DNA from: an uncultured Bifidobacterium sp.
GTDB lineage: Bacteria > Actinomycetota > Acidimicrobiia > Acidimicrobiales > Ilumatobacteraceae
Direction of reading: 5' to 3'
Assembly: GCA_964653385.1 (NCBI GenBank)
Contig: CAZZFB010000001.1
Span: 3,523 to 67,522 of the forward strand
Length of the DNA: 64,000 nt
Below the pieces are notes generated by a model. It made no database searches. It was not told the origin of the DNA and saw only the letters and a program-made list of their open reading frames with translations. Position numbers and translations under genes: made by a program. Below, one piece after another: positions 8,271-22,688 of the stretch; the stretch's first letter is position 1, and every line of letters starts with the position of its first letter.

Positions 8271-8489
8271 ATGGCAGCGTTCGACCCCAACGAGATGATC
8301 ACCCGGTTCCGGGACCGCGCCGCCGCGGTGCGCAAGCGTCCGCTGCCGCCGGTCGCGGGCGAGGAGCGCCAGCTCTTCATCGCCCAGGCCGAGACCGACT
8401 TCCGTGACTTCGCCATCATCGGCGATGCCGTCGCCACGCTCGAGGACGGCGTCCTCACTCTCCGCATCGACCTCAACCCCCCGAAGTGA
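8271..8489 (+). CDS. Small hypothetical protein (72 aa)
   Basis: ATG preceded by GGAGAAAGC. Stop overlaps the GTG of the next gene (GTGA at 8486-8489), implying translational coupling. Confidence 0.55.
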   Translation: MAAFDPNEMITRFRDRAAAVRKRPLPPVAGEERQLFIAQAETDFRDFAIIGDAVATLEDGVLTLRIDLNPPK

Positions 8490-9415
8490 CCCGCACCGGC
8501 CCGACGCTCCGGGACCGCGTGCGCGGCCGCGACGACATACACGTGATCGCGGCCGTGACGGCGGTGATGGCGTGGGGGATCGGGCCCATCCTCAACAAGT
8601 CGATGTCGGTGGGAACCCCGTCGATCGTCCTCACCCGCATGGTGCTCGGCGTGCCGATCATGGTTCTGATGGCGTACCGCTTCGGCGACGGCCTCTCCAG
8701 GGAACTGATGCGCCGCACCGCGCTGCCCGGCGTCCTCTTCGCGCTGTCGTTCATCTCCGGTTTCGCCGCCATCAAGATGACCTCGATCGCCAATGCCACG
8801 CTGATGAGCAACCTCCAGCCCGTGCTCGTGCTCTTCGTCGCCGGCCGTCTGTTCGGGGAGAGGCTGCGGGCGAGGCAGCTCGTCTACGGGGCGTCGTCGA
8901 TGGGCGGCGTGCTCATCGTCGTGCTCGCCGCCGCGTCCACCAGCGGCGCCCACGTGAGCGGCGACCTGATGGCCGCGGCAAACGTGGTCATCTGGACTGG
9001 CTACTTCCTGCTCGCCAAGCAGCAGAGGCTGGACGGCGTGGACTCGTGGTCCTTCCTCGCCGCGATCTTCGTGTGGGCCTCGGTCGTCGTCATCCCGTTC
9101 GGTCTCGTCGCCAGCAACGACCTCGGCCGCATCACCGCGCGCGACTGGCTGCTCGCGTTCGGCATGGCTATCGGCCCCGGTGTCGTCGGGCACGGTCTCA
9201 TGACGTGGTCGCAGAGCCACGTGGGTGTGTCGCTCGCGTCGATCCTCGGTCTGTTGAGCCCCGTCCTGTCGACCTCGCTCGCATGGGTCATCTTCGGGCA
9301 GTCCCTGACCCCGGTCCAGATGGCGGGCTCCGTGGTGGTGATCGTGTCGCTCGTGGCGCTCGTGCGGGAGCAGTCCGTTTCCGCGGTCCCGGCGGCCAAA
9401 CCAGCCGGATTGTGA
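8486..9415 (+). CDS. EamA/DMT-superfamily transporter
   Basis: About 10 predicted TM helices in two repeated halves, with the typical EamA pattern (IWGIGPI..., LGEsLt..Q..G..vv). Track ORF of 309 aa. Confidence 0.8.
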   Translation: MTRTGPTLRDRVRGRDDIHVIAAVTAVMAWGIGPILNKSMSVGTPSIVLTRMVLGVPIMVLMAYRFGDGLSRELMRRTALPGVLFALSFISGFAAIKMTSIANATLMSNLQPVLVLFVAGRLFGERLRARQLVYGASSMGGVLIVVLAAASTSGAHVSGDLMAAANVVIWTGYFLLAKQQRLDGVDSWSFLAAIFVWASVVVIPFGLVASNDLGRITARDWLLAFGMAIGPGVVGHGLMTWSQSHVGVSLASILGLLSPVLSTSLAWVIFGQSLTPVQMAGSVVVIVSLVALVREQSVSAVPAAKPAGL

Positions 9416-9459
9416 CCCGTTGCGGCGGCCCGATGCCTCGCTACAATGGGCGCACATAC

Positions 9460-9535
9460 GCGGACGTGGCTCAGTTGGTAGAGCATCACCTTGCCAAGGT
9501 GAGGGTCGCGAGTTCGAATCTCGTCGTCCGCTCCA
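9460..9535 (+). tRNA. tRNA-Gly (anticodon GCC), CCA encoded
   Basis: Acceptor GCGGACG/CGTCCGC, D-loop GCTCAGTTGGTAGAGC, anticodon stem TCACC/GGTGA with loop TTGCCAA, T-arm GGTCGCGAGTTCGAATCTCG, then TCCA. Confidence 0.95.
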
Positions 9536-9538
9536 TCC

Positions 9539-9564
9539 GAAAGGCGCCCTCAGGGGCGCCTTTC
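9539..9564. terminator. GC-rich hairpin between tRNA-Gly and a convergent ORF (possible bidirectional terminator)
   Basis: Perfect 11-bp stem GAAAGGCGCCC / GGGCGCCTTTC with loop TCAG. Only a short T run follows. Confidence 0.55.
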
Positions 9565-9605
9565 GTGCGTCACGGTCGCGAAGGCGGTGCCGGCCGCGGA
9601 GGGCG

Positions 9606-9869
9606 TCAGCGGGGGTGGGTGACCCGGGACTCCTCGATGTGGCGGTCCACGATGCGCAGCCTCGCCACGCCCGTGGCGCCGTCGCGCGCGCGGGTCACGT
9701 TCGCCAGGTGCGTCCACCCCTCGGGATGGTCCGCGGTCTCGTGGGTGATGCGCACAACCCTGTAGCTGGTGTACGTCTCGCCGGCCTGTGACACATCGGC
9801 AAACACGGGGTCCTCGAGGAAGTCCTCAACGCGGGTCAGCTCGGAGAGGAGCACGAACGATTCGTCCAT
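9606..9869 (-). CDS. Small hypothetical protein (87 aa)
   Basis: Internal start MDESFVLLSEL of track ORF 9606..10082. It lies 28 nt downstream of the LuxR-type gene on the same strand. Confidence 0.45.
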   Translation of the reverse strand: MDESFVLLSELTRVEDFLEDPVFADVSQAGETYTSYRVVRITHETADHPEGWTHLANVTRARDGATGVARLRIVDRHIEESRVTHPR

Positions 9870-9897
9870 GGGGTGCTGACTTTCGACTGACCGGAGG

Positions 9898-10533
9898 TCA
9901 GGCGAAGTCCGGGATCTTCCAGCCGGTGACCTGGAGGATCGCGAGCTGGGTCCGGTGGGAGAGTTCGTTCGACGTGAGGAGGGCCTCCACCCGGTTGCGA
10001 ACTGTCTGGAGGGGGAGCGACAGCGTCTCGGCGATGTCACTGTCGGTGAGGCCGCTGGCGATGAGGTCGGCCACGTCCGCATCGAGCGGGGTCGGGTACG
10101 TCAGCTCGCGGGCGAGGAGCCCCGGTTCGAGGTCGAGTCTGGCGAGGGACGGGTGGTCGTAGAGGGACACGTGACCGGCGGCGACACCGGACAGGTGGGT
10201 GGAGACGGCGTCCACGTGCTGGTCGGCGTCCACCACGCCCTCGTACCCGTACTGCAGGGCGCGCACGACCTGCACGCGCGACGGGGAGGGAGCCGCGACG
10301 ACGTACGAGGTCGTGGCGGCGGTGTCCAGGCAGGAACGGATCATCCTGGCCAGGTTGAACCAGTCGACGGGGAACATGAATATGTCCACCGGTCCGCTCT
10401 TCAGTGCGTCGACCGCGTGCCGTCCGGTCTCGGCGACATCCACCACCTGCACCGTGCCGGTGGAGGGGAGACCCCCGACGAGGCCGTCAAGGGGGGACTG
10501 GGGGCTGTTCCCGATGACCACTCGCAGCATCAT
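9898..10533 (-). CDS. LuxR/FixJ-family transcriptional regulator with degenerate (pseudo-)receiver domain
   Basis: C-terminal HTH LTDSDIAETLSLPLQTVRNRVEALL...L.SHRTQLA. The N-domain has a receiver-like layout but lacks the acidic pocket (RVVIGNSPQ instead of DD, VDIFMFPVDW at the phospho-acceptor position). ATG 10533 is adjacent to GGAGGA. Alternative start at 10548. Confidence 0.7.
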   Translation of the reverse strand: MMLRVVIGNSPQSPLDGLVGGLPSTGTVQVVDVAETGRHAVDALKSGPVDIFMFPVDWFNLARMIRSCLDTAATTSYVVAAPSPSRVQVVRALQYGYEGVVDADQHVDAVSTHLSGVAAGHVSLYDHPSLARLDLEPGLLARELTYPTPLDADVADLIASGLTDSDIAETLSLPLQTVRNRVEALLTSNELSHRTQLAILQVTGWKIPDFA

Positions 10534-10657
10534 TCCTCCGGTCGTCATCCGTTGCCCCGGGTTCGGAGCACGTTCACTAGGAGCGTAACCCCAGCGACGG
10601 TCGGCATCAGTGACCACGGCATGCGAGGTAGGGACGTCCCCGAGTAGGTTCGCGGCC

Positions 10658-11596
10658 ATGAGCGTGCAGTTCGGTATCCATCTCGGCCCGCAGAACGCCT
10701 CGGTGGCGGACCTCCGTGCACTGTGGCGCTGGTTCGACTCTGCCGGCATGGACTGGATCTCGCTGTGGGACCACATCTACGAGGCGCCGCCCGCCGGCGG
10801 CACACAACCTCATTTCGAGGCGTTCTCGATGCTCGGTGCGCTCGCCGCAGACACCGAGCGCGCGCGCATCGGGTGCCTGGTCTTCTGCTCCCAGTACCGC
10901 AACATCGGTGTCCTCGCCAAGGGTGTCATCTCCGTCGACCACATCTCCGGCGGCCGGTTCGAGATGGGGCTCGGCAGCGGCTGGCACGACCAGGAGGCGA
11001 AGGCATTCGGGCTCGACTGGCCCTCGCAGGGTGGGCGTTTCAAGGTGATGGAGTCGCAGCTGCAGGCACTCACGAAGTGGCGGGCAGGGGAACGCGTCAC
11101 GCAGTCATCCCCCGGGGTCGAGCTGTCCGATGCCGCGATGGTGCCCGGACCGATGGGCCGCATGCCGATCTGGATCGGCGGGGTCGGCCGCGAGAAGACG
11201 CTCCGGATGGCCGGCCGGTACGCGGACGGGTGGAACGCCGCGTACGTGCCACCCGCGGAGTACCGCGAGCTGAACGGCATCCTCGATGACTGGTGCGAGA
11301 AGGCGGGGCGCGACCCCTCCTCGGTGGAGCGCTCCATCAACCTGTCGTACGGGCTCAGCACCGACGACGTGTCCGTGGTGAAGGACCGCCTGCACAGCCA
11401 GTGGGGCGCGGGGGCGGAGCGCATCATCGCCGGTTCGTTGCTGGGCCGGCCCGGGGACGTGATGGAGCAGGTCGCGGCGTTCGTGGATGCCGGTGCGCAG
11501 CTCATCAACATCGCCATCAGGCCGCCGTGGGACCGCGAGGTGCTGGCCGAGTACGTGGAGACGGTCGTCCCGGCCATGCGGAGGGAATGGCCGTAG
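10658..11596 (+). CDS. LLM-class (luciferase-like) flavin/F420-dependent oxidoreductase
   Basis: MSVQFGIHLGPQ...WDHIY...FEAFSMLGALAADTERARIGCLV...GGRFEMGLGSGW, a typical luciferase-like monooxygenase fold pattern. Confidence 0.8.
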   Translation: MSVQFGIHLGPQNASVADLRALWRWFDSAGMDWISLWDHIYEAPPAGGTQPHFEAFSMLGALAADTERARIGCLVFCSQYRNIGVLAKGVISVDHISGGRFEMGLGSGWHDQEAKAFGLDWPSQGGRFKVMESQLQALTKWRAGERVTQSSPGVELSDAAMVPGPMGRMPIWIGGVGREKTLRMAGRYADGWNAAYVPPAEYRELNGILDDWCEKAGRDPSSVERSINLSYGLSTDDVSVVKDRLHSQWGAGAERIIAGSLLGRPGDVMEQVAAFVDAGAQLINIAIRPPWDREVLAEYVETVVPAMRREWP

Positions 11597-14992: not shown

Positions 14993-16204
14993 ATGCCGTT
15001 GGAACTTGACTTTGGACCGGCCGCGGAGGCCTTCCGCACCGAGGTGCGCGAGTGGCTGGAGGCGAACAAGCCTGCCGACCTGGTGGGCGTCAACGCCGAC
15101 GAGGCACAGCGCGGTCAGCACCCGGGCCTGAGCGCCTGGGCGAAGAAGCTGACTGAGGCCGGTTACATGTGCGTCGGCTGGCCGAAGGAGTACGGCGGCC
15201 GCGGCCTGACCGGCGTGGAAGTGGCGGTGCTGAACGAGGAGTTCGCCCGCGCGAACGTTCCGCGCATCACCCGCGGCATGGGCGAGTGGCTCGTGGGCCC
15301 CTCCATCATCGTGTGGGGCACCGAGGAGCAGAAGCGCCGCTTCCTTCCGCGCATCGTGGACGGCACCGACCGTTACTGCCAGGGCTTCTCGGAGCCGGAC
15401 GCCGGTTCCGACCTCGCGTCACTGAAGACGCGCGGCGTCATCGACGGTGACGAGGTCGTCATCACCGGCCAGAAGGTGTGGACCTCCGGCGCGACCGAGG
15501 CGAACATGATGTTCTGTCTCGCGCGCACGGACCTGGATGCCCCGAAGCACGCCGGCATCTCGTACGTGCTGCTCCCCATGTTCAAGGAGGACAAGTCCTC
15601 CAACGGCATCGAGCTGCGCCCGATCCGCCAGCCGCACGGTGCCTCGCACTTCACCGAGACGTTCCTCACGGAGTCACGCGCGCCGGTCGACAACATCATC
15701 GGCGGCATGAACAACGGGTGGCGCGTCACCATGACCACGCTCGGCAACGAGCGCGGCGGCAACGCCACCACACAGCACGTGGAGTTCACGAAGCAGTTCT
15801 GGGCCGCGGTGAAGATGCTGCAGGCCTCCGGCAAGGCCAAGGACCCGATCATCCGCCAGGAGCTGGCCTGGGCCTACAGCCACGTGGAGATCATGCGCTT
15901 CAACGGCCTGAAGGTGCTGTCCGAGGTCATCGCCCGCAAGGAGCCCGGCCCGGGTGCCTCGGTGAACAAGATGTTCTGGTCCGAGTACGCCCAGAAGTTC
16001 TCCGAGCGGATGATGAACGCCCGCGGCGCCGACGCCATGCTGGCCATCAACGAGCCGGGCCAGCCGTTCGCGGTGGACCGGTGGACGTCGATGTTCTTCC
16101 AGCACAGGTCCTCCACGATCTGGGGCGGCACCGCACAGGTGCAACGCAACATCGTGGGCGAGAGGGTGCTCGGGCTCCCGAAGGAGCCGGGCCAGAAGGG
16201 CTGA
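14993..16204 (+). CDS. Acyl-CoA dehydrogenase
   Basis: YCQGFSEPDAGSDLASL, ITGQKVWTSGA and C-terminal IWGGTAQVQRNIVGERVLGLP. ATG 14993 follows GGGGGACA, whereas the track start is GTG 14972. Confidence 0.85.
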   Translation: MPLELDFGPAAEAFRTEVREWLEANKPADLVGVNADEAQRGQHPGLSAWAKKLTEAGYMCVGWPKEYGGRGLTGVEVAVLNEEFARANVPRITRGMGEWLVGPSIIVWGTEEQKRRFLPRIVDGTDRYCQGFSEPDAGSDLASLKTRGVIDGDEVVITGQKVWTSGATEANMMFCLARTDLDAPKHAGISYVLLPMFKEDKSSNGIELRPIRQPHGASHFTETFLTESRAPVDNIIGGMNNGWRVTMTTLGNERGGNATTQHVEFTKQFWAAVKMLQASGKAKDPIIRQELAWAYSHVEIMRFNGLKVLSEVIARKEPGPGASVNKMFWSEYAQKFSERMMNARGADAMLAINEPGQPFAVDRWTSMFFQHRSSTIWGGTAQVQRNIVGERVLGLPKEPGQKG

Positions 16205-16234
16205 CCCGGCCCCTTGGGGGCCACCCTGCGGGGC

Positions 16235-16936
16235 TCAGCTCTTGTCTTCGCCGTCCTTGCCGGTCTCGAAGAAGTCCTTCGCGTCTGCGTCCATGCCGCG
16301 GCGCTTCTTGTCGCGGAAGTTGGACGTGGCCCGGGACATGCTCGCCATGGCCGCCCGCGAGCTGCGGCCCGTGGCCTGCCACGCAGACGTGGAGCCCTGG
16401 TCGTAGCCGAACCGGGCGGCGTCGGCGTAGGCATCGAGCCCGGCCGAGAGGAAGACGAACTGCCAGCCGTCGGCCGTGCGCTCCGCGATGAGCTGGCGCA
16501 CCTTCTCGAGCGTGTACTCGCGGCTCTGGTTCTCCTCGCCGTCGGTCACGGTGACGAAGACGATGTCGTCCTTGCGCAGGCCGGTGGCCTCGCGTGCCCC
16601 CTGGTCCACCATGACCCGGCCGATGGCCAGACCGGTGGCGTCGAGGAGGGGAGTGCCGCCGCGGGGCACGTAGGACGTGCGGTCGAGTGCGACCGCCTCC
16701 GTGATCGGGGCCCCCCAGACGACCACCTCCTGCGGGTCCTGGGAGTCGAACAGGATGATGCTGACGCGGGCGTCGGGCCCGTTCGCCTGCTGGTCGGCGA
16801 GGAAGGTGTTGAACCCCCCGATGACGTCGTTGACGATCGAGGACATGGAGCCGGACCTGTCGAGCAGCACCACGATGTGGGTGCCGTTCGGGCGGGCCTG
16901 CTGCTGGTTGTCGTTGGTGGACGGGTTGTTGGTCAT
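16235..16936 (-). CDS. Small von Willebrand factor A (vWA) domain protein
   Basis: MIDAS motif VVLLDRSGSM and later TDGEEN. 233 aa with a charged C-terminal tail. RBS GAAAGG. Confidence 0.8.
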   Translation of the reverse strand: MTNNPSTNDNQQQARPNGTHIVVLLDRSGSMSSIVNDVIGGFNTFLADQQANGPDARVSIILFDSQDPQEVVVWGAPITEAVALDRTSYVPRGGTPLLDATGLAIGRVMVDQGAREATGLRKDDIVFVTVTDGEENQSREYTLEKVRQLIAERTADGWQFVFLSAGLDAYADAARFGYDQGSTSAWQATGRSSRAAMASMSRATSNFRDKKRRGMDADAKDFFETGKDGEDKS

Positions 16937-16956
16937 TGTGTGCCTTTCGTGATCTC

Positions 16957-16975
16957 AATCCCGACCGTCGGGATT
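16957..16975. promoter_or_regulatory. 19-bp perfect palindrome between the Nudix-regulator gene and the vWA gene
   Basis: AATCCCGAC-C-GTCGGGATT, with imperfect extension CTCAAT.../...ATTTGAG. It lies 31 nt after the Nudix stop and 20 nt before the vWA start. No U-tract follows on the transcribed strand. Confidence 0.45.
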
Positions 16976-17006
16976 TGAGTAAAGGTCACTATAACCAGAG
17001 GGTGTG

Positions 17007-17747
17007 TCAGTCCCTCCGCGGGGCTGAGCGGAACCGGATCGGCGGGGAGATCTCCCGTGCCCGGCCTGCCTTGTAGAGCATCGGCGGGCGACCGGGGCTG
17101 GGCTGGTCGGAAGTGATGATCCCGAGCGGCTGGATGAAGTTCTTGGTGAGCTCCACCTTGCGGCGGAAGTTGGCCGGGTCGACCTCGTCCTGGAGGAACG
17201 CCTCGTAGACCATCCGCAGGTCGGACATGGTGAACTTCGGCTGGCAGAAGCTGACCGCGATCGGGGTGTCCTCGAGCATCTGGAAGGCCTTGGCCCTGGC
17301 GTCGCTGATGATCCGGTGGTGGTCGAACTCGAGCACCCGGGAGGACTGGAGCTGGCGGTAGGGAACGAACTTGGCCTCCACCGAGTGCTTGATCGGGGCT
17401 ATCTCGCCGGGATGGGGCAGGAGGGCGAGGTAGGCGATCGAAAAGGCCCGCCAACGGCTGTCCCTGTCGGGGTCCCCGTAGGCACCCACCTGGTGGAGAT
17501 CCTTGTGGCGCAGGGTTATGCCAGTCTCCTCGTGCACTTTCCGCAGGGCGGTGTCTTCCAGGGGTTCCTTCTCCTTGACGGCCCCTCCGGGAAGTGCCCA
17601 ACTCTTGGAGGGGGCATCAGGACGGCGCATCACCAACACCTCGAGGCGGTCCTTGGCGGCCAGGTTCCTGTCCGGGTTCACGGTCAGCACGACCGTGTCG
17701 ACATAGACGTAGAAGTCCGACTGGATGGTTCGCTCATGCTTCGGCAT
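17007..17747 (-). CDS. NrtR-like regulator: Nudix domain fused to C-terminal winged-helix DNA-binding domain
   Basis: Nudix box GAVKEKEPLEDTALRKVHEETGI (RK replaces RE). The C-terminal stretch LEFDHHRII...FTMSDLRMVYEAFL...DPANFRRKV...GRPPMLY is characteristic of the NrtR wHTH. ATG 17747 follows GGAGG. Confidence 0.75.
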   Translation of the reverse strand: MPKHERTIQSDFYVYVDTVVLTVNPDRNLAAKDRLEVLVMRRPDAPSKSWALPGGAVKEKEPLEDTALRKVHEETGITLRHKDLHQVGAYGDPDRDSRWRAFSIAYLALLPHPGEIAPIKHSVEAKFVPYRQLQSSRVLEFDHHRIISDARAKAFQMLEDTPIAVSFCQPKFTMSDLRMVYEAFLQDEVDPANFRRKVELTKNFIQPLGIITSDQPSPGRPPMLYKAGRAREISPPIRFRSAPRRD

Positions 17748-17943
17748 GCCTCCAGTGTGCCACCACCGAGTGTCAGATTTGGGACAAAGGCTCCCATTCC
17801 GCTTGTCACAGTGCCCGGGCGGGGAGGGCCGGCCTGGGAACGGGGAATAAGTCCGGACCACCGTTAGTTGCACACACCCTGTCGTTATAGTCCGACCGTC
17901 CTAAACCCCCGGCCCCGGCCGGGCCGATCGCTCAAGGAGCCCA

Positions 17944-19431
17944 ATGACCACACACACCACCGGACAGCCCGTCTCAACCCGCCACATCAGCTACCCCCAG
18001 AAGTTCCGTGCCACCGGCGCCATCCTCGGCGCGGCCATCGGGGACGCCCTCGGGGCCCCGTTCGAGTTCAAGCCCGGCGGCCTGTACTCGTCACACTTCC
18101 CCGGTCCGGTCCTGTCCGGCACCGGCGAGATGATCGGCGGGGGCGGTTTCGGGTGGGCGCCCGGTGAGTTCACGGACGACACACAGATGGCCATGGCCCT
18201 CGCGGAGTCGCTCATCGCCCACGGCGGCCTGGACCTCGACGACCTGTGGGAGCGCTTCCAGGCATGGAAGCACTCGGCCGTCGACGTCGGGATCGTCACG
18301 GGAGTCGTGCTGTCCCAGCCGGTGCGCCACGGCGCGGCCGAGCACGGCCACCACGCCACCGGCGGCCGCAGCGCGAGCAACGGCTGCGTCATGCGCATCG
18401 CGCCCGTGGGCGTGCTCGGGGTGCGTCTCGGTTCGGACGCCACGGTCGCACTCGCGGCCGGCCAGGCCCGCCTCACGCACCACGACCCCGCCGCGGCGGT
18501 CGGCGCTGCGCTCGTGGCCGAGTTGATCCGCCACATCATCGTCACGGGCGAGTTCCGCGGGGTCGCCGAAGCGATCCTCGACGACTTCGCCGCCACCGGC
18601 ACGTTCGACGCCGCCGTAGTGGGCGAGTATCGCGGCTACGTGGCGGACGGCTTCGATCCGCTGTCGCCCGCGATCCCCGGGAACGGGTCCGTGTGGACGA
18701 CCGTGGGCCAGGCACTGTGGGCCGTGCGCAGCACGGACTCGTTCGAGGCCGCGATGCGCGCCGTCATCGACCTCGGCGGGGACACCGACACCGTGGCGGC
18801 CGTGGCAGGTGCCGTCGCGGGCGCACTGTACGGGGCGCAGCGCATCCCCATCCGCTGGACGACCTACGTGCACGGGTACCTGCGCATGCCCGACGGCTCC
18901 CAGCGCGAGTACCGCATGCAGGACCTGATCGATGTCTCGCGCCTGCTGCTGGGCGAAGGGAAGTCGACCATGTCGTACCGTGACGCGCCCGTCGGCCCGC
19001 GCCTGGTGCACAAGGCGGGGGTGCACGCCGCGAACCTGGACGGCGCGGCCACCGCCCCGCGCGACCACGCGGTCGTGTCGCTGTGCATGACGGAGGAGCG
19101 CTTCCTCAACCACGTCAACCGCCGCCAGATCTACATCCGCGACAAGGAGAACCCGCAGAACGACGACCTGTTCTTCGTGGTGCGCGACGCCGTGGAGGCG
19201 ATCGAGGCCTTCCTCGCGGAGGGGCGTGACGTGGTGGTGCACTGCCACGGCGGCCGCAGCCGCACCGGTCTCGTGCTGAAGGCCTGGTACATGGCCCATG
19301 AGGGTGCCTCCCACCGCCAGGCACACGATTGGCTGCGCGGCACGTGGGAGCACTACGAGACGTGGACACAGTCGTTCTGGGATTTCCTGGAGACCGAGTG
19401 GACGGCCCACGTGGGCCGGAAGGGAGCCTGA
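17944..19431 (+). CDS. ADP-ribosylglycohydrolase (ARH) fused to a CX5R dual-specificity/PTP-like phosphatase domain
   Basis: ARH motifs AAIGDALGAPFEF, EFTDDTQMAMALAESL and GGDTDTVAAVAGAVAGALYG in the first ~330 aa. The C-terminal ~130 aa has VVHCHGGRSRTGLV (C-x5-R-T). SD AAGGAG lies 5 nt upstream of ATG 17944. Confidence 0.85.
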   Translation: MTTHTTGQPVSTRHISYPQKFRATGAILGAAIGDALGAPFEFKPGGLYSSHFPGPVLSGTGEMIGGGGFGWAPGEFTDDTQMAMALAESLIAHGGLDLDDLWERFQAWKHSAVDVGIVTGVVLSQPVRHGAAEHGHHATGGRSASNGCVMRIAPVGVLGVRLGSDATVALAAGQARLTHHDPAAAVGAALVAELIRHIIVTGEFRGVAEAILDDFAATGTFDAAVVGEYRGYVADGFDPLSPAIPGNGSVWTTVGQALWAVRSTDSFEAAMRAVIDLGGDTDTVAAVAGAVAGALYGAQRIPIRWTTYVHGYLRMPDGSQREYRMQDLIDVSRLLLGEGKSTMSYRDAPVGPRLVHKAGVHAANLDGAATAPRDHAVVSLCMTEERFLNHVNRRQIYIRDKENPQNDDLFFVVRDAVEAIEAFLAEGRDVVVHCHGGRSRTGLVLKAWYMAHEGASHRQAHDWLRGTWEHYETWTQSFWDFLETEWTAHVGRKGA

Positions 19432-19435
19432 CCCC

Positions 19436-20869
19436 GTGATCGACCTGATGGAGGCCGAGGAGGCTGTGATCGCGCACCTCAACCGCATCGCGTGCATCGA
19501 CCAGGACGTGGACGAGCACGGCGAGGAGGTCCCGCTCTCGTTCCCGCTCACGTTCTTCACCCTGGAGAACGCGGTGGTGTGCCGCGCGACGCTGTACACG
19601 CGCTTCAACGGCGCGGTGGTGCTGCGCATCGACGCCGACGTCACGGAGGCGGACGACTCGGCGTCGCTCCGCCAGTGGGCGCTCGACACGCCAGGCCAGC
19701 TGCCGTACGTGCAGATCCGCTACCAGCGCGACTCCCGCGACGGCACGGCCACGGTCACGGCCACCCACTCCCTCGCGGTGGACCAGCTGAACCGGTTCGT
19801 GCTGGAGCAGGTGGTGTCGTCGTTCGACTTCATAGTCCCGCAGTGGATCGCGAAGGCGGCCCAGATCGAGGCCGTCGCCGAGCTGAACGCCCAGCGCCAG
19901 CGCAAGAAGATCGAGGAGGCCGCGCGCTCCGGGACCGAAGAGGACCACAGCGACGACTCCGACGACCCGTTCGGTGTCGACGAGGACGCTCCCGCACCCG
20001 CCACCACCGTCCACGAGGCCACCGGTGTGGACGCCGTGCTGAAGGAACTGTCCGGTCTGATCGGTCTCGAGCCGGTGAAGAAGCTGGTGCGCGACCTGAC
20101 CGACGTGCAGCGCGTCGCGACGCTCCGCGAGAACGCCGGCCTCAAGCCGCTCCGTCCCTCGCCGCATCTCGTGTTCACCGGCAACCCGGGGACCGGCAAG
20201 ACCACGGTCGCCCGCCTCATCGGACGTCTCTACAAGGAGATGGGGCTCCTGCGCCGCGGCCACGTGGTGGAGACCGGCCGCCAGGGGTTGATCGGCGGCT
20301 ACATCGGGCAGACGGCGATCAAGACCGCCGAGGTGCTGAAGTCCGCCGAGGACGGCGTGCTCTTCATCGACGAGGCGTACTCGCTCGCGGTCGGCCACCA
20401 CCTCGACTACGGCCGCGAGGCCATCGAGACGATCCTCGCGCACATGGAGAACAACCGCGGGCGCATCGCGGTCGTCGTCGCGGGGTACCCCGACAAGATG
20501 AAGGATTTCCTGGTGATGAACCCGGGTCTCGCCAGCCGCTTCGACCACACGCTGAAGTTCCCCGACTTCTCGAACGACGAGCTCGTCGAGGTCTTCGAGA
20601 TGTTCGCCCGCGCGCACGACTACGTGCTCACGCCCGCCGCGCGTGCACACCTGCTGGGGATCGTCTCCGGATGGCCCCGCGGCGCGACATTCGCGAACGC
20701 GCGGGAGGTCCGCAAGCTCTTCAACGACGTGGTGATGAGGCACTCCGCGGCCGTCGTGGCCGGCGGGATGAGCCTGGGGAACGGTCTCGTCGAGATCGAC
20801 ACGTGCCACTTCGCGGATGGCGGCGGCACGTCGTCCGGCGGCGGGGCGCGTCGTTTCGGCTATCTCTGA
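19436..20869 (+). CDS. CbbX/SpoVK/EccA-type AAA+ ATPase with a ~170-aa non-TPR N-terminal domain and acidic linker
   Basis: Walker A GNPGTGKTT, Walker B VLFIDEAYSL, AGYPDKM and GLASRF. GTG 19436 lies 4 nt after the upstream stop (alternative ATG 19448). The N-domain has a mixed alpha/beta pattern that I judge YbjN/secretion-chaperone-like by eye only. Confidence 0.8.
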   Translation: MIDLMEAEEAVIAHLNRIACIDQDVDEHGEEVPLSFPLTFFTLENAVVCRATLYTRFNGAVVLRIDADVTEADDSASLRQWALDTPGQLPYVQIRYQRDSRDGTATVTATHSLAVDQLNRFVLEQVVSSFDFIVPQWIAKAAQIEAVAELNAQRQRKKIEEAARSGTEEDHSDDSDDPFGVDEDAPAPATTVHEATGVDAVLKELSGLIGLEPVKKLVRDLTDVQRVATLRENAGLKPLRPSPHLVFTGNPGTGKTTVARLIGRLYKEMGLLRRGHVVETGRQGLIGGYIGQTAIKTAEVLKSAEDGVLFIDEAYSLAVGHHLDYGREAIETILAHMENNRGRIAVVVAGYPDKMKDFLVMNPGLASRFDHTLKFPDFSNDELVEVFEMFARAHDYVLTPAARAHLLGIVSGWPRGATFANAREVRKLFNDVVMRHSAAVVAGGMSLGNGLVEIDTCHFADGGGTSSGGGARRFGYL

Positions 20870-20927
20870 CATACCCGCGCGGGGCAATGGCCGTCCCGCG
20901 GTGCGCCGCGGAAACTAGGGTCGAGCC

Positions 20928-22688
20928 GTGCGATTCGAGGCGTTGCGGCGGCTGGACGGCCGTCTCCACCCGGACAGCGGCAAGTCCCCCGGCGGCACTG
21001 CGTTCTCCGCCATCCACCGCAGGGCGGCACTCGTCGCGGCACTCGTCGCGGGTCTCGTCTCGTTCTCCGTGGCGTTGCGCCAGTACGGGCCCACCGTGCA
21101 CCCCGACGAGTGGGGATTCCTGCTGAACGGCAGGGTCATCATGGGGCACGCCGAGGCGCAGATCCCCACGGGCAGCTTCTACCCCGCGGGGTTCGGCCTG
21201 GTGACCGGGCCGCTCGCCGAGCTCACCGGCTCGCTCGCGGGCGGGTACCGGGCGACGCTCGTCGTCAACTTCGTGCTGTGCGTCCTGGTGGGCGTCACCG
21301 CGCGGCTCGTGGGTCGGCGCGTGTTCGGGATGGGCGAGAACGCGGCAACCGTGGCCGGGGCCCTCGCCTTCGTGGTCCCGGGCACGATCGTGACGAGCCT
21401 GTTCGCCTGGCCGGAGACCGCGGCCCGTCTCGCGTTCCTCGTGTTCGTGCTCTGGTTCCACCGCATCGCGGGGGAGCGCAGGAGAGGCCCGATGCTCCTG
21501 TTCGGGTTCCTGGTGGGTCTCATGCCCGGCCTGCACGGGAGGTTCACCCTGGTCCTGCCCGTCGTGTGCTGCGTGTTCCTGCTGTGGGGGCTGCGCCGTG
21601 ACATCAGCAGGGTGCTCGCCGTGGGGGCGTGCGCCGTCACCACCGCCGGGTACGCGTGCAGCTACCTGCTGAACAGGTTCGTGAAGAACTCGCTCTACGG
21701 GGCCTCCTACGACCAGGAGAACAGGCTCCTGCGCCGTCTCGTCGACCCCACGCTGTGGCCGGCGCTCCTGCGCACCATGACGGGGCAGTCGTGGTACCTC
21801 GTGGCCACCTCGGGAGGGCTGGTCGCCGTGGCAGTGGCGTACATGGTCGTCCGCGTGCGCTCCGGCGGCGGGCTGCGGACCGTGCGCACGGACCCCTCCC
21901 GCCTGACGTGCCTCGTGATCGTCGTCAACACCGCGCTCCTCGTGTTCACCGGGGGGCTGCAGCTCCTCTTCGGGAACCGCGGAGACCACCTCATCTACGG
22001 CAGGTACGTGGAGATCCTCGTGCCCGTCATCCTCGTGGCCGGGTGCGCGGCGCTCGAGTCCTCGCGCCTGCTCGCGCTGCGGGCATGGTTGCTCGGCGCG
22101 GTCGGCACGCTCGCCGTCGCGCTTCTGTACGTGCTCGTCGACATGGGTGACGGCGTCAAGGGCGGCTGGGCGCGCAACGACATCGTCTTCCCGAACATCG
22201 TCGGCACCGATGCGATGAGGTACCTGGTGCGGCCCGGTCTCGTGACGTTCGGTGCCGCGTTCGCCCTCGCCGGCCTGCTCCTGTGGTGGGCCTACCGGAG
22301 GCACGGAGCGTGGGCACCCGTGCTCATGGTCGCCTTGCTCGCGGTCGGGTCCTCGTGGTCGGCGCAGCGCAGCATCCTCACCCGCACCGACGACCTCGAG
22401 GCCACCGGGGTGAGCGTCGACTACGTGAGGGAGGCCGGCGGAACGCTCATCGGCTTCGACGAGGGAGTGCGCAACGACCGCTCGTACTACTACCTGCGGT
22501 ACCGCCTGCACCCCGTCGCTCTCGTCAGGTTCGACATCTCCTCCCCGGACGCGGTGATCCCGGCCGCGTACTCCTGCCTCTACGGGTTCCCGAACAAGCC
22601 CCCGCGGGGCGGGGAGTGGCGCATCGTCGCCGATGAGATACCCCTCAGACGAGTACTGTGGCAACGGGTCGGGACCGACCGTTGTTGA
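20928..22688 (+). CDS. Polytopic membrane protein, probable GT-C-type glycosyltransferase
   Basis: More than 10 TM helices, acidic motif VHPDEWGF after TM1 and a ~110-aa soluble C-terminus. Immediately upstream of a polyprenol-phosphate GT2 gene. Confidence 0.55.
   Translation: MRFEALRRLDGRLHPDSGKSPGGTAFSAIHRRAALVAALVAGLVSFSVALRQYGPTVHPDEWGFLLNGRVIMGHAEAQIPTGSFYPAGFGLVTGPLAELTGSLAGGYRATLVVNFVLCVLVGVTARLVGRRVFGMGENAATVAGALAFVVPGTIVTSLFAWPETAARLAFLVFVLWFHRIAGERRRGPMLLFGFLVGLMPGLHGRFTLVLPVVCCVFLLWGLRRDISRVLAVGACAVTTAGYACSYLLNRFVKNSLYGASYDQENRLLRRLVDPTLWPALLRTMTGQSWYLVATSGGLVAVAVAYMVVRVRSGGGLRTVRTDPSRLTCLVIVVNTALLVFTGGLQLLFGNRGDHLIYGRYVEILVPVILVAGCAALESSRLLALRAWLLGAVGTLAVALLYVLVDMGDGVKGGWARNDIVFPNIVGTDAMRYLVRPGLVTFGAAFALAGLLLWWAYRRHGAWAPVLMVALLAVGSSWSAQRSILTRTDDLEATGVSVDYVREAGGTLIGFDEGVRNDRSYYYLRYRLHPVALVRFDISSPDAVIPAAYSCLYGFPNKPPRGGEWRIVADEIPLRRVLWQRVGTDRC

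Follow-up and report, generated by a model that had tools for sequence, protein, structure and literature searches.

The 64,000-nucleotide stretch of contig CAZZFB010000001.1 analysed here (assembly GCA_964653385.1, positions 3,523 to 67,522; hereafter the window, in whose numbering all coordinates are given) carries a gene for a protein in which an ADP-ribosylglycohydrolase (ARH, also termed ARG) domain is joined to a cysteine phosphatase domain of the dual-specificity phosphatase (DSP) type. This ARH-DSP fusion is proposed to be an enzyme of two activities that forms the centre of a four-gene module responsive to ADP-ribose, with a vWA-domain protein and an NrtR-like regulator encoded on one strand and ARH-DSP and a chaperone-fold AAA+ ATPase (TY-chaperone-AAA+) on the other. 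The gene content matches that of the 'ARG-centric' systems of Iyer, Burroughs, Anantharaman and Aravind (Viruses 2022 14:1977; PMC9503650), a class that is itself a computational prediction. Since the locus has no linked transferase, the most plausible source of the ADP-ribosylation would be an extrinsic one, from a phage or a toxin, and the proposal as a whole is given about even chances of being correct. The fusion is no discovery of a new architecture, and since it was already catalogued in 2022 its value is that of an experimental lead.

The fusion gene and its two catalytic domains

The fusion gene and its parts are listed below. Conservation was counted per column in an alignment of 77 homologues with 47-89% identity, and secondary structure was taken from an AlphaFold2 (AF2) model.

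17944..19431, + strand: ARH-DSP fusion gene, 495 aa, ATG start, stop included
18016..18849, + strand: ARH/ARG domain, residues 25-302 (ADP_ribosyl_GH, PF03747)
18040..18069, + strand: GDALGAPFEF motif (D34 in 76/77, E41 in 77/77)
18172..18189, + strand: TDDTQM metal-binding motif (T77, D78, D79 and Q81, each in 77/77)
18472..18486, + strand: LTHHD, the 'TH' motif (T178 H179, invariant in 77/77)
18775..18795, + strand: GGDTDTV, second metal-binding motif (D280 and D282 in 77/77, T283 in 75/77)
18871..18999, + strand: inter-domain connector (AF2: beta-hairpin 310-324, helix 325-335, linker to 352)
19000..19428, + strand: DSP/PTP-fold cysteine phosphatase domain, residues ~353-495 (from Pfam, PDB sequence matches and AF2 secondary structure)
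19141..19143, + strand: codon of D400, general-acid candidate, in Y-I-R-D, 34 residues before C434 (77/77)
19240..19269, + strand: P-loop HCHGGRSRTG with nucleophile C434 and R440 (H433, C434, G436, G437, S439, R440 and T441, all in 77/77)

All the motifs quoted in a preliminary description of this DNA sit where it had placed them, namely GDALGAPFEF at residues 33-42, TDDTQM at 77-82, GGDTDTV at 278-284, NPQNDDLFF at 403-411, HCHGGRSRTG at 433-442 and the linker PVGPRLVHKAGVHAANLDG at 349-367. The same description had taken the gene for a genuine single open reading frame (ORF), and rightly so: the ORF contains 0 internal stops and 0 frameshifts. It is preceded by the Shine-Dalgarno sequence AAGGAG at 17934-17939, 4 nt 5' of the ATG, and the GC content of the window (~70%) continues unbroken through the locus. 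A homologue search covering 5.8 billion proteins gave 2679 matches, and all of the best 120 clusters (at 90% identity) share the two-domain architecture at full length (47-99% identity, 416-511 aa). Relatives are encoded in 372 cases in a scan of GTDB with one genome per species, and the best 80 of these 372 come nearly all from freshwater Acidimicrobiia (Ilumatobacteraceae, acIV lineage). Moreover, independent gene calls on a 2.13-Mb contig of a relative give the same single fusion gene with the same neighbours. The architecture is thus common in Acidimicrobiia and elsewhere, besides having been in print since 2022 (PMC9503650), so that the word 'unusual', which had been applied to it, is not supported. 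Several metagenome-assembled genome records with the Acidimicrobiia-type locus bear titles such as 'uncultured Bifidobacterium sp.', 'Bifidobacterium breve', 'Bordetella parapertussis', 'Haloferula sp.' and 'beta proteobacterium' (loci L015, L019-L021, L027, L041, L048, L073 and L080 of our set); the likely explanation is wrongly labelled bins or contaminating contigs.

The whole chain, modelled by AF2 with the homologue alignment, reaches a predicted local distance difference test score (pLDDT) of 95.9 and a predicted template-modelling score (pTM) of 0.95, and it is predicted to form one rigid two-domain body. A Foldseek search of the PDB with the full-length model found no solved structure that spans both domains (TMq <=0.51). 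The two domains diverge equally among the 77 homologues, with a median identity of 54% for ARH and 57% for DSP, and the connector is the fastest-changing part (median 33%). The conservation of the two catalytic centres indicates that both are under selection.

The ARH domain matches PF03747 over profile positions 1-285 of 287 (E=1e-60, 206.3 bits against a cutoff of 26.2). The TH motif of ARG domains has been named as catalytic (PMC9503650). The di-metal site is intact, as had been read from the motifs, the metal and TH residues being kept in 75-77 of the 77 homologues. Searches of PDB sequences return Tri1 (6dre, E=1e-31) and DraG (2woc, E=1e-28), and the structures that Foldseek matches in the PDB are DraG, a Thermus (TTHA) ARH, Tri1 and ARH3, with prob 1.0 and TMt 0.65-0.84, along with a Listeria ADP-ribosyltransferase (ART)-ARH immunity protein. 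Structurally, DraG is the best match (TMt 0.81-0.84; 2woe 0.82), and the all-helical ARH fold of the N-terminal domain is borne out by model and search together. The equivalog cutoffs of NCBIfam are not reached for either relative (DraG TIGR02662, 126.8 against 337.05 bits; Tri1 NF041672, 135.7 against 490). Judged by these scores, the domain is classed as a member of the DraG/Tri1 superfamily and as an orthologue of neither. Both DraG and Tri1 are arginine-ADP-ribose hydrolases that act on proteins.

In the C-terminal part, DSPc (PF00782) is matched by residues 389-466 with 38.7 bits, above the gathering score of 33.5; Tc-R-P (PF22785, a model from the Aravind laboratory) is also matched, with 33.3 bits, above the cutoff of 27. 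Among solved structures, the nearest in sequence are atypical DUSPs and small archaeal protein tyrosine phosphatases (PTPs), with E=1e-5 to 1e-3, and the AF2 model shows strand 430-433, then the P-loop, then helix 439-453. The earlier identification of a genuine CX5R(S/T) cysteine phosphatase is thereby upheld; the profile check for a non-phosphatase fold, which had been set beforehand as the refuting test, assigned DSPc instead. Structure search was more one-sided, as it confirmed the ARH fold and left the DSP fold unconfirmed because the top 50 full-length Foldseek matches are all ARH domains; the DSP assignment therefore rests on Pfam, PDB sequence matches and secondary structure. The general acid had been sought in the 'NDD' of NPQNDDLFF. 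That candidate was rejected in favour of D400, since D407 is an aspartate in 2/77 homologues and D408 in 18/77, whereas D400 is invariant; from its position, D400 is probably the general acid. Additionally, the domain carries a Trp-rich C-terminal helical extension, in which W448, W463, W468 and W486 are invariant among the 77 homologues.

The phosphatase belongs to a small subfamily. When residues 340-495 were compared by phmmer with 1.84 billion cluster representatives (50% identity), 248 representatives reached E<=1e-3 and 97 of them also E<=1e-10; in most, the match is the C-terminal part of a protein of 400-525 aa. A Pfam scan of 81 representatives found DSPc in 81/81 and ADP_ribosyl_GH in 43/81; in a few, the fusion partner is an EVE domain, an Mrr-type nuclease or a cyclic-phosphate-processing receiver (cREC), and some distant members match the PTP-NADK profile. 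The catalytic Cys is the sole invariant column among these 81 diverse representatives.

With this evidence in hand, it is extremely improbable that the fusion is an artefact of assembly or annotation, or that one of its domains is a dead pseudo-enzyme used for binding. The window comes from a single assembly, and substrate-trapping pseudophosphatases exist. However, the same single ORF, of 460-510 aa, has been assembled independently in hundreds of genomes, so the junction is no assembly fusion and the artefact part is refuted, while the pseudo-enzyme part is opposed by the invariance of the catalytic Cys, Arg and Asp, by the retention of the metal ligands and by the single rigid body in the model.

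Regulator, shared element and partner proteins

The features outside the fusion gene that bear on its regulation and function are the following.

16235..16936, - strand: vWA-domain protein, 233 aa (VWA PF00092, 23.9 bits, barely over the cutoff of 23.8)
16954..16979, - strand: leader hairpin upstream of vWA, CTCAAATCCCGAC GGT CGGGATTGAG, with an 8-bp perfect core (reached in 0/300 shuffles)
16988..17004, - strand: second exact CACCC-N5-TTATAGT, upstream of vWA, also found upstream of vWA in relatives
17007..17747, - strand: NrtR-like regulator (Nudix + NrtR winged helix), 246 aa, divergent from ARH-DSP
17517..17588, - strand: Nudix box of the regulator, G-x5-E-x7-R-K-V-x-E-E-T-G (alignment of 35 orthologues)
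17875..17891, + strand: CACCC-N5-TTATAGT before ARH-DSP, with -10-like TATAGT, conserved in 27 non-identical upstream regions
17908..17923, + strand: GC-rich leader hairpin CCCGGCCCCGGCCGGG, just 5' of the ARH-DSP Shine-Dalgarno sequence (17934-17939)
19436..20869, + strand: TY-chaperone-AAA+ ATPase of 477 aa, whose GTG start codon follows the stop of ARH-DSP by 5 nt
19436..19879, + strand: its N-terminal domain of the YbjN/type III secretion system (T3SS) chaperone fold, first 148 residues (AF2 + Foldseek)
20171..20563, + strand: its AAA+ ATPase core (PF00004, E=3.5e-13)
20858..20866, + strand: its invariant C-terminal G-Y-L (G-Y-[LV] in 25/25 complete ARH-DSP-linked AAA+ genes)

The regulator matches both of its profiles above cutoff (NUDIX 5e-15, 56 bits; NrtR_WHD 8.5e-12, 45.5 bits), and it does not reach the NCBIfam NtrR equivalog cutoff (72 against 400). 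Its start is the Met at 17747, as orthologues and independent gene calls indicate (242 aa in one relative). The mechanically called ORF (288 aa, GTG at 17873) over-extends through 17748-17873 across the conserved promoter element. The Nudix box of this clade has Lys in place of the Glu in 'RE', whereas remoter linked regulators retain the canonical REL-EE. Owing to this RE to RK change, the regulator of the clade is more probably a sensor than a hydrolase, i.e., an active ADP-ribose pyrophosphatase.

Linkage of the partner genes was assessed by clustering the neighbours of the relatives within 5 kb and annotating the clusters with Pfam. The clustering used a simple GC3-weighted gene caller, which miscalled window genes and dropped ARH-DSP, and tblastn served as a cross-check. 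Among the 48 well-flanked loci (at least 3 kb on both sides), an NrtR-like gene is linked to ARH-DSP in 27 and a WYL regulator in 8, with no locus having both; ARPP-1 is found in 8, the AAA+ gene in 19 and the vWA gene in 11. The NrtR linkage outlasts the loss of other synteny, the gene being found by tblastn in changed positions and orientations (L052/53, L056, L058, L063, L064 and L070).

The element CACCC-N5-TTATAGT occurs as an exact copy only twice in the 64-kb window, before ARH-DSP and before vWA, and matches with at most 2 mismatches number 3 against 0.47 expected. Its fuller conserved form, derived from the 27 upstream regions, is ACACCC-N5-TA(T)A(G)T followed ~7 nt on by TCTAC/CCTAA. 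The two copies look like a candidate promoter or operator, and the sharing of the element ties vWA to ARH-DSP and AAA+ as one putative regulon. A sigma-70 consensus scan of 16100-21100 found no promoter, and the -10-like TATAGT is accompanied by no recognisable -35. Hairpins directly precede the Shine-Dalgarno sequences of both genes; their sequences differ among relatives and their pairing is kept, i.e., they covary, and several loops are GNRA-like (GCAA, GAGA). Perfect stems of at least 5 bp are present in 11/29 leaders against 1.35 expected from shuffles (maximum 6), and an Rfam scan of 16800-18100 gave no match. Three terminator-like sites in the 16100-21100 scan were rejected; all of them fall in the coding sequence of vWA, and they do not exceed the shuffle expectation.

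The AAA+ gene is translationally coupled to ARH-DSP, the two genes overlapping by 4 nt in one relative. Its profile matches are AAA, AAA_lid_6 and CbbX/SpoVK/EccA-like. A Pfam scan of the N-terminal 148 residues gave no match; their AF2 model (pLDDT 91.4) has as its first 26 Foldseek matches members of the YbjN family (YbjN, AmyR) or T3SS chaperones (SycH, ExsC, SycT, VecA, CesT, SycE), apart from two uncharacterised proteins, with prob 0.8-1.0 (~1.0 for the first 22), TM ~0.5 and E 6e-3 or weaker. The model thus identifies the domain as having the fold that Iyer et al. call 'TY-chaperone', which at this locus is joined to an ATPase. The orthologues were gathered with full-length queries, as a word-indexed search with the N-terminal domain alone gave one match. 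Following a variable tail, the G-Y-[LV] end is kept even in copies of 42-44% identity lying 1.4-1.5 kb away, and it is absent from all of the ~100 other SpoVK-like AAA proteins among the matches listed. Mpa and Bpa attach to the 20S proteasome of actinobacteria through a C-terminal motif with a penultimate Tyr (GQYL, HbYX), and Bpa was discovered through that motif (PMC8223512). The G-Y-L end resembles the docking motif, and a proteasome link is only a lead. An extension of this lead, which must be called a long shot, would make the AAA+ protein a previously unnoticed proteasome-docking unfoldase, whose chaperone-fold domain recognises ADP-ribosylated or damaged proteins and whose G-Y-L docks the 20S particle. 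The module would then act either by repair through ARH-DSP or by Pup-independent degradation, and it would represent the first bacterial immune system against viral ADP-ribosyltransferases that is amenable to experiment.

The proposed mechanism runs as follows. The NrtR-like protein would repress both promoters with CACCC-N5-TTATAGT, as the duplication of the motif and the known behaviour of NrtR suggest, and free ADP-ribose or 2'-phospho-ADP-ribose would release it, as has been shown for other NrtRs. The DraG/Tri1-like domain, with its binuclear metal site (D34/E41, T77-D78-D79, D280-D282-T283), would cleave ADP-ribose off macromolecules, most likely off arginine-ADP-ribosylated proteins; homology and the intact site point this way. 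The C-terminal domain, through C434, R440 and D400, would remove a terminal phosphomonoester. As ADP-ribose itself has no terminal phosphate, this phosphatase must act on a phosphorylated variant (2'-phospho-ADP-ribose or ADP-ribose-1''-phosphate), on a product of pyrophosphate cleavage (ribose-5-phosphate, AMP or the phosphoribosyl group left behind on the protein) or on a separate phospho-mark. Lastly, judging from their folds, the vWA and chaperone-AAA+ proteins may bind and remodel the modified proteins. The phosphatase substrates suggested in the preliminary description are all among the candidates named above. The two-step substrate envisaged in the preliminary description is a chemically sensible conjecture that lies near the published hypothesis, in which released ADP-ribose induces the operon and the phosphatase processes the released nucleotide further (PMC9503650).

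A different account of the same two activities is that the substrates are soluble nucleotides rather than proteins. The enzyme would then carry out a two-step breakdown of a phosphorylated ADP-ribose derivative, such as 2'-phospho-ADP-ribose from NADP, ADP-ribose-1''-phosphate or ADP-ribose cyclic phosphate (ADPr>p) from RNA repair, O-acyl-ADP-ribose, or a cyclic or modified ADP-ribose immune signal, and the chaperone-like neighbours would be unrelated to it. This agrees with the need of a Cys phosphatase for a terminal phosphate, which neither free nor protein-bound ADP-ribose has, and with the distant DSP-subfamily members that are fused to cREC or match PTP-NADK. ARH3-type enzymes, moreover, hydrolyse O-acetyl-ADP-ribose and esters of the ADP-ribose-1''-phosphate kind. 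NrtR also responds to 2'-phospho-ADP-ribose (pADPR) besides ADP-ribose (ADPR), both of which release it from DNA in vitro (PMC2330246). However, the nearest ARH relatives strip ADP-ribose from proteins, the T3SS-chaperone/YbjN fold of the coupled AAA+ protein is a peptide-binding one and therefore points to protein substrates, and the vWA gene shares the promoter element. Iyer et al. likewise argue that ARG domains prefer macromolecular adducts (PMC9503650). Soluble substrates are, on balance, considered unlikely.

Genomic neighbourhood and the source of the modification

On one side the module is flanked by genes for PhyH, an enoyl-CoA hydratase (ECH), an alpha/beta hydrolase and an acyl-CoA dehydrogenase (ACAD), and on the other by genes for a 586-aa membrane protein, a GT2 glycosyltransferase, a polysaccharide pyruvyl transferase and an FrhB-like protein. 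The 13-25 kb region is wholly syntenic in 23 genomes. Within these, the median identities to the window are as follows.

Module genes: vWA 64%, NrtR-like 59%, ARH-DSP 56%, AAA+ 50%
Flanking genes: ECH 75%, alpha/beta hydrolase 81%, ACAD 83%, GT2 89%, pyruvyl transferase 70%, membrane protein 52%

The module genes thus change faster than the flanking metabolic genes (50-64% against 70-89%). The membrane protein (20928-22688, + strand; multi-pass, no Pfam match) stands 3' of AAA+ in those syntenic relatives that keep the AAA+ gene, and directly after ARH-DSP in L016-L018, which have no AAA+ gene; the GT2 and pyruvyl-transferase genes then follow.

Other relatives place ARH-DSP in other company. 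ARPP-1 (PF20208, E=3e-70) lies near it at 9 loci, and further neighbour clusters comprise a fused PafBC-like WYL regulator (HTH_PafC + WYL + WCX), an ECF sigma factor and two conserved proteins without a Pfam match. In the WYL-type relatives (L034-L047), a fused PafBC-like regulator of ~657 aa with two HTH-WYL-WCX units flanks ARH-DSP. The same relatives carry conserved proteins of ~260 and ~504 aa, both without a Pfam match, and a small stand-alone Nudix hydrolase upstream; example coordinates are 8401-9162, 9227-11200 and 12968-14479 in L041. On plasmid pA-N39 of Pimelobacter simplex (L081, 3908-10044), a 30%-identical ARH-DSP of 502 aa stands in an operon in the order hypothetical protein, DUF6569 (= ARPP), hypothetical protein, ARH-DSP and TM0106 RecB-like nuclease, with a GIY-YIG nuclease gene near it on the opposite strand. 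This operon represents the effector-bearing version of the ARH-DSP system.

At the window locus itself, several points weigh against an extrinsic source and a protective role. The locus lies outside any defence island and is inherited vertically in a stable setting of metabolic and cell-envelope genes. When the window was searched by tblastn with ARPP and with representatives of the other neighbour clusters, neither a nuclease nor an ARPP effector turned up; PADLOC, which has no model for such a system, gave no match for the fusion or vWA and only weak Nudix and AAA matches; and tblastn against 50,697 phage records returned no phage homologue. The fast divergence of the module genes is weak evidence of conflict because the adjacent membrane protein shares it. 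The NrtR operator is described as a 21-bp palindrome with a GT-N7-AC core (PMC2330246), and a symmetry-axis scan of the conserved element defined no such operator; the palindromes that it gave, at about -26, were weak and specific to single clades, and no GT-N7-AC pattern was shared by all. Furthermore, the RE to RK change makes cleavage by the Nudix domain doubtful here as a source of the phosphomonoester, and arginine specificity is inferred only from the nearest relatives, at 26-30% identity. A literature search found no biochemical or genetic experiment on any ARH-phosphatase fusion or on ARG-centric protection.

Owing to the stability of the chromosomal context, a housekeeping role with the same chemistry stays alive as an explanation. 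The enzyme could reverse an endogenous regulatory ADP-ribosylation of proteins, as DraG does for nitrogenase or as has been proposed for Streptomyces, or it could serve NrtR-controlled homeostasis of NAD and ADP-ribose, the transferase being encoded at another place in the genome. The chromosomal position, the uniform GC content, the synteny in 23 genomes among acyl-CoA and glycosyltransferase genes and the missing effector and PADLOC matches for the fusion all agree with such a role, as does the fact that NrtR regulators classically control NAD metabolism and, in Streptomyces, an 'ADPR' regulon (PMC2330246). However, a Pfam scan of the 12 ORFs besides the fusion in 10.6-26.2 kb (about 6 kb on either side) found no ART or sirtuin. 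The relatives show hallmarks of conflict systems, namely ARPP, the RecB-like nuclease, the plasmid location and the swaps between WYL and Nudix regulators, and the module genes outpace their flanks in divergence. Chaperone and AAA+ partners would also be unexpected for a metabolic recycling enzyme. A housekeeping role is therefore held to be a serious contender that is nevertheless rather improbable, and the removal of extrinsically imposed ADP-ribose is preferred.

The ADP-ribosyltransferases of phages and toxins are widespread, and to our knowledge no host system dedicated to undoing their modifications has been demonstrated so far. ARG-phosphatase modules are published candidates for this task, and the window locus is a compact and well-conserved example that is fit for a first biochemical test. 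It offers a confident structure model, mutant targets (C434, D400, D78/D79 and D280/D282), a putative ADP-ribose-responsive promoter pair and a coupled chaperone-AAA+ protein as handles for experiment. Identification of the phosphatase substrate would, additionally, reveal whether phosphoribosyl remnants or phosphorylated forms of ADP-ribose are of importance in bacteria.

Comparison with known systems

Each half of the enzyme has characterised relatives. With DraG, the ARH domain shares the fold and the binuclear metal motifs; however, DraG has no phosphatase domain, and the window locus has neither DraT nor a nitrogenase context. Tri1 (PDB 6DRE/6DRH), an ARH-type immunity protein against the type VI secretion ART toxin Tre1, is the best PDB sequence match and provides a precedent for an ARH that shields a cell by reversing the arginine ADP-ribosylation imposed by a foreign transferase. 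Unlike ARH-DSP, Tri1 is encoded beside its toxin, which it also blocks by binding, and has no phosphatase, regulator or chaperone partners. The small atypical DSPs and archaeal PTPs (Tk-PTP 5z59, ShufPTP 9e9l, DUSP18/21/28) resemble the DSP domain in having a beta-strand followed by the HCxxGxxR(S/T) P-loop, with an Asp ~30-35 residues upstream, whereas only the P-loop and the adjoining helix align, over ~45-50 residues in the three best matches and at most ~95 in weaker ones. The macro-domain ADP-ribose-1''-phosphate phosphatases of the Poa1p type are functional analogues only, with an unrelated fold and mechanism.

As regards genomic organisation, the nrtR1-draG-SCO1765 operon of Streptomyces, described by Rodionov et al. 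in 2008 as an 'ADPR' regulon (PMC2330246), likewise couples an NrtR-family regulator to an ARH gene in Actinobacteria. It differs in that the Streptomyces plasmid homologues examined are ARH-only, and the GT-N7-AC palindrome is unrecognisable at the window locus.

The closest likeness is to the ARG-centric systems, in which an ARG occurs without a linked ART (section 3.8 of PMC9503650) and which are predicted to counter phage-catalysed ADP-ribosylation. In that survey, a phosphatase, mostly of the rhodanese-phosphatase superfamily, is coupled to the ARG by fusion or adjacency in >55% of neighbourhoods, and mutually exclusive Nudix-HTH or WYL repressors are found in >42%; the partners are peptide-binding chaperones (vWA, SseB, TY-Chap1-3), with variable and optional Macro, NADAR, REase and ARPP genes. 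The window locus shares the phosphatase fused to the ARG, the Nudix-HTH regulator, the vWA and TY-chaperone partners and the lack of a linked ART, and its relatives add the exclusivity of NrtR and WYL, ARPP and nucleases of the restriction-endonuclease fold. It differs in having no effector nuclease or ARPP and in being stable, syntenic and chromosomal. Another difference is that the chaperone fold is here fused to a CbbX/SpoVK-type AAA+ ATPase with a G-Y-L end, AAA+ proteins going without mention in the main text of the paper; this chaperone-AAA+ partner with its G-Y-L tail may be new.

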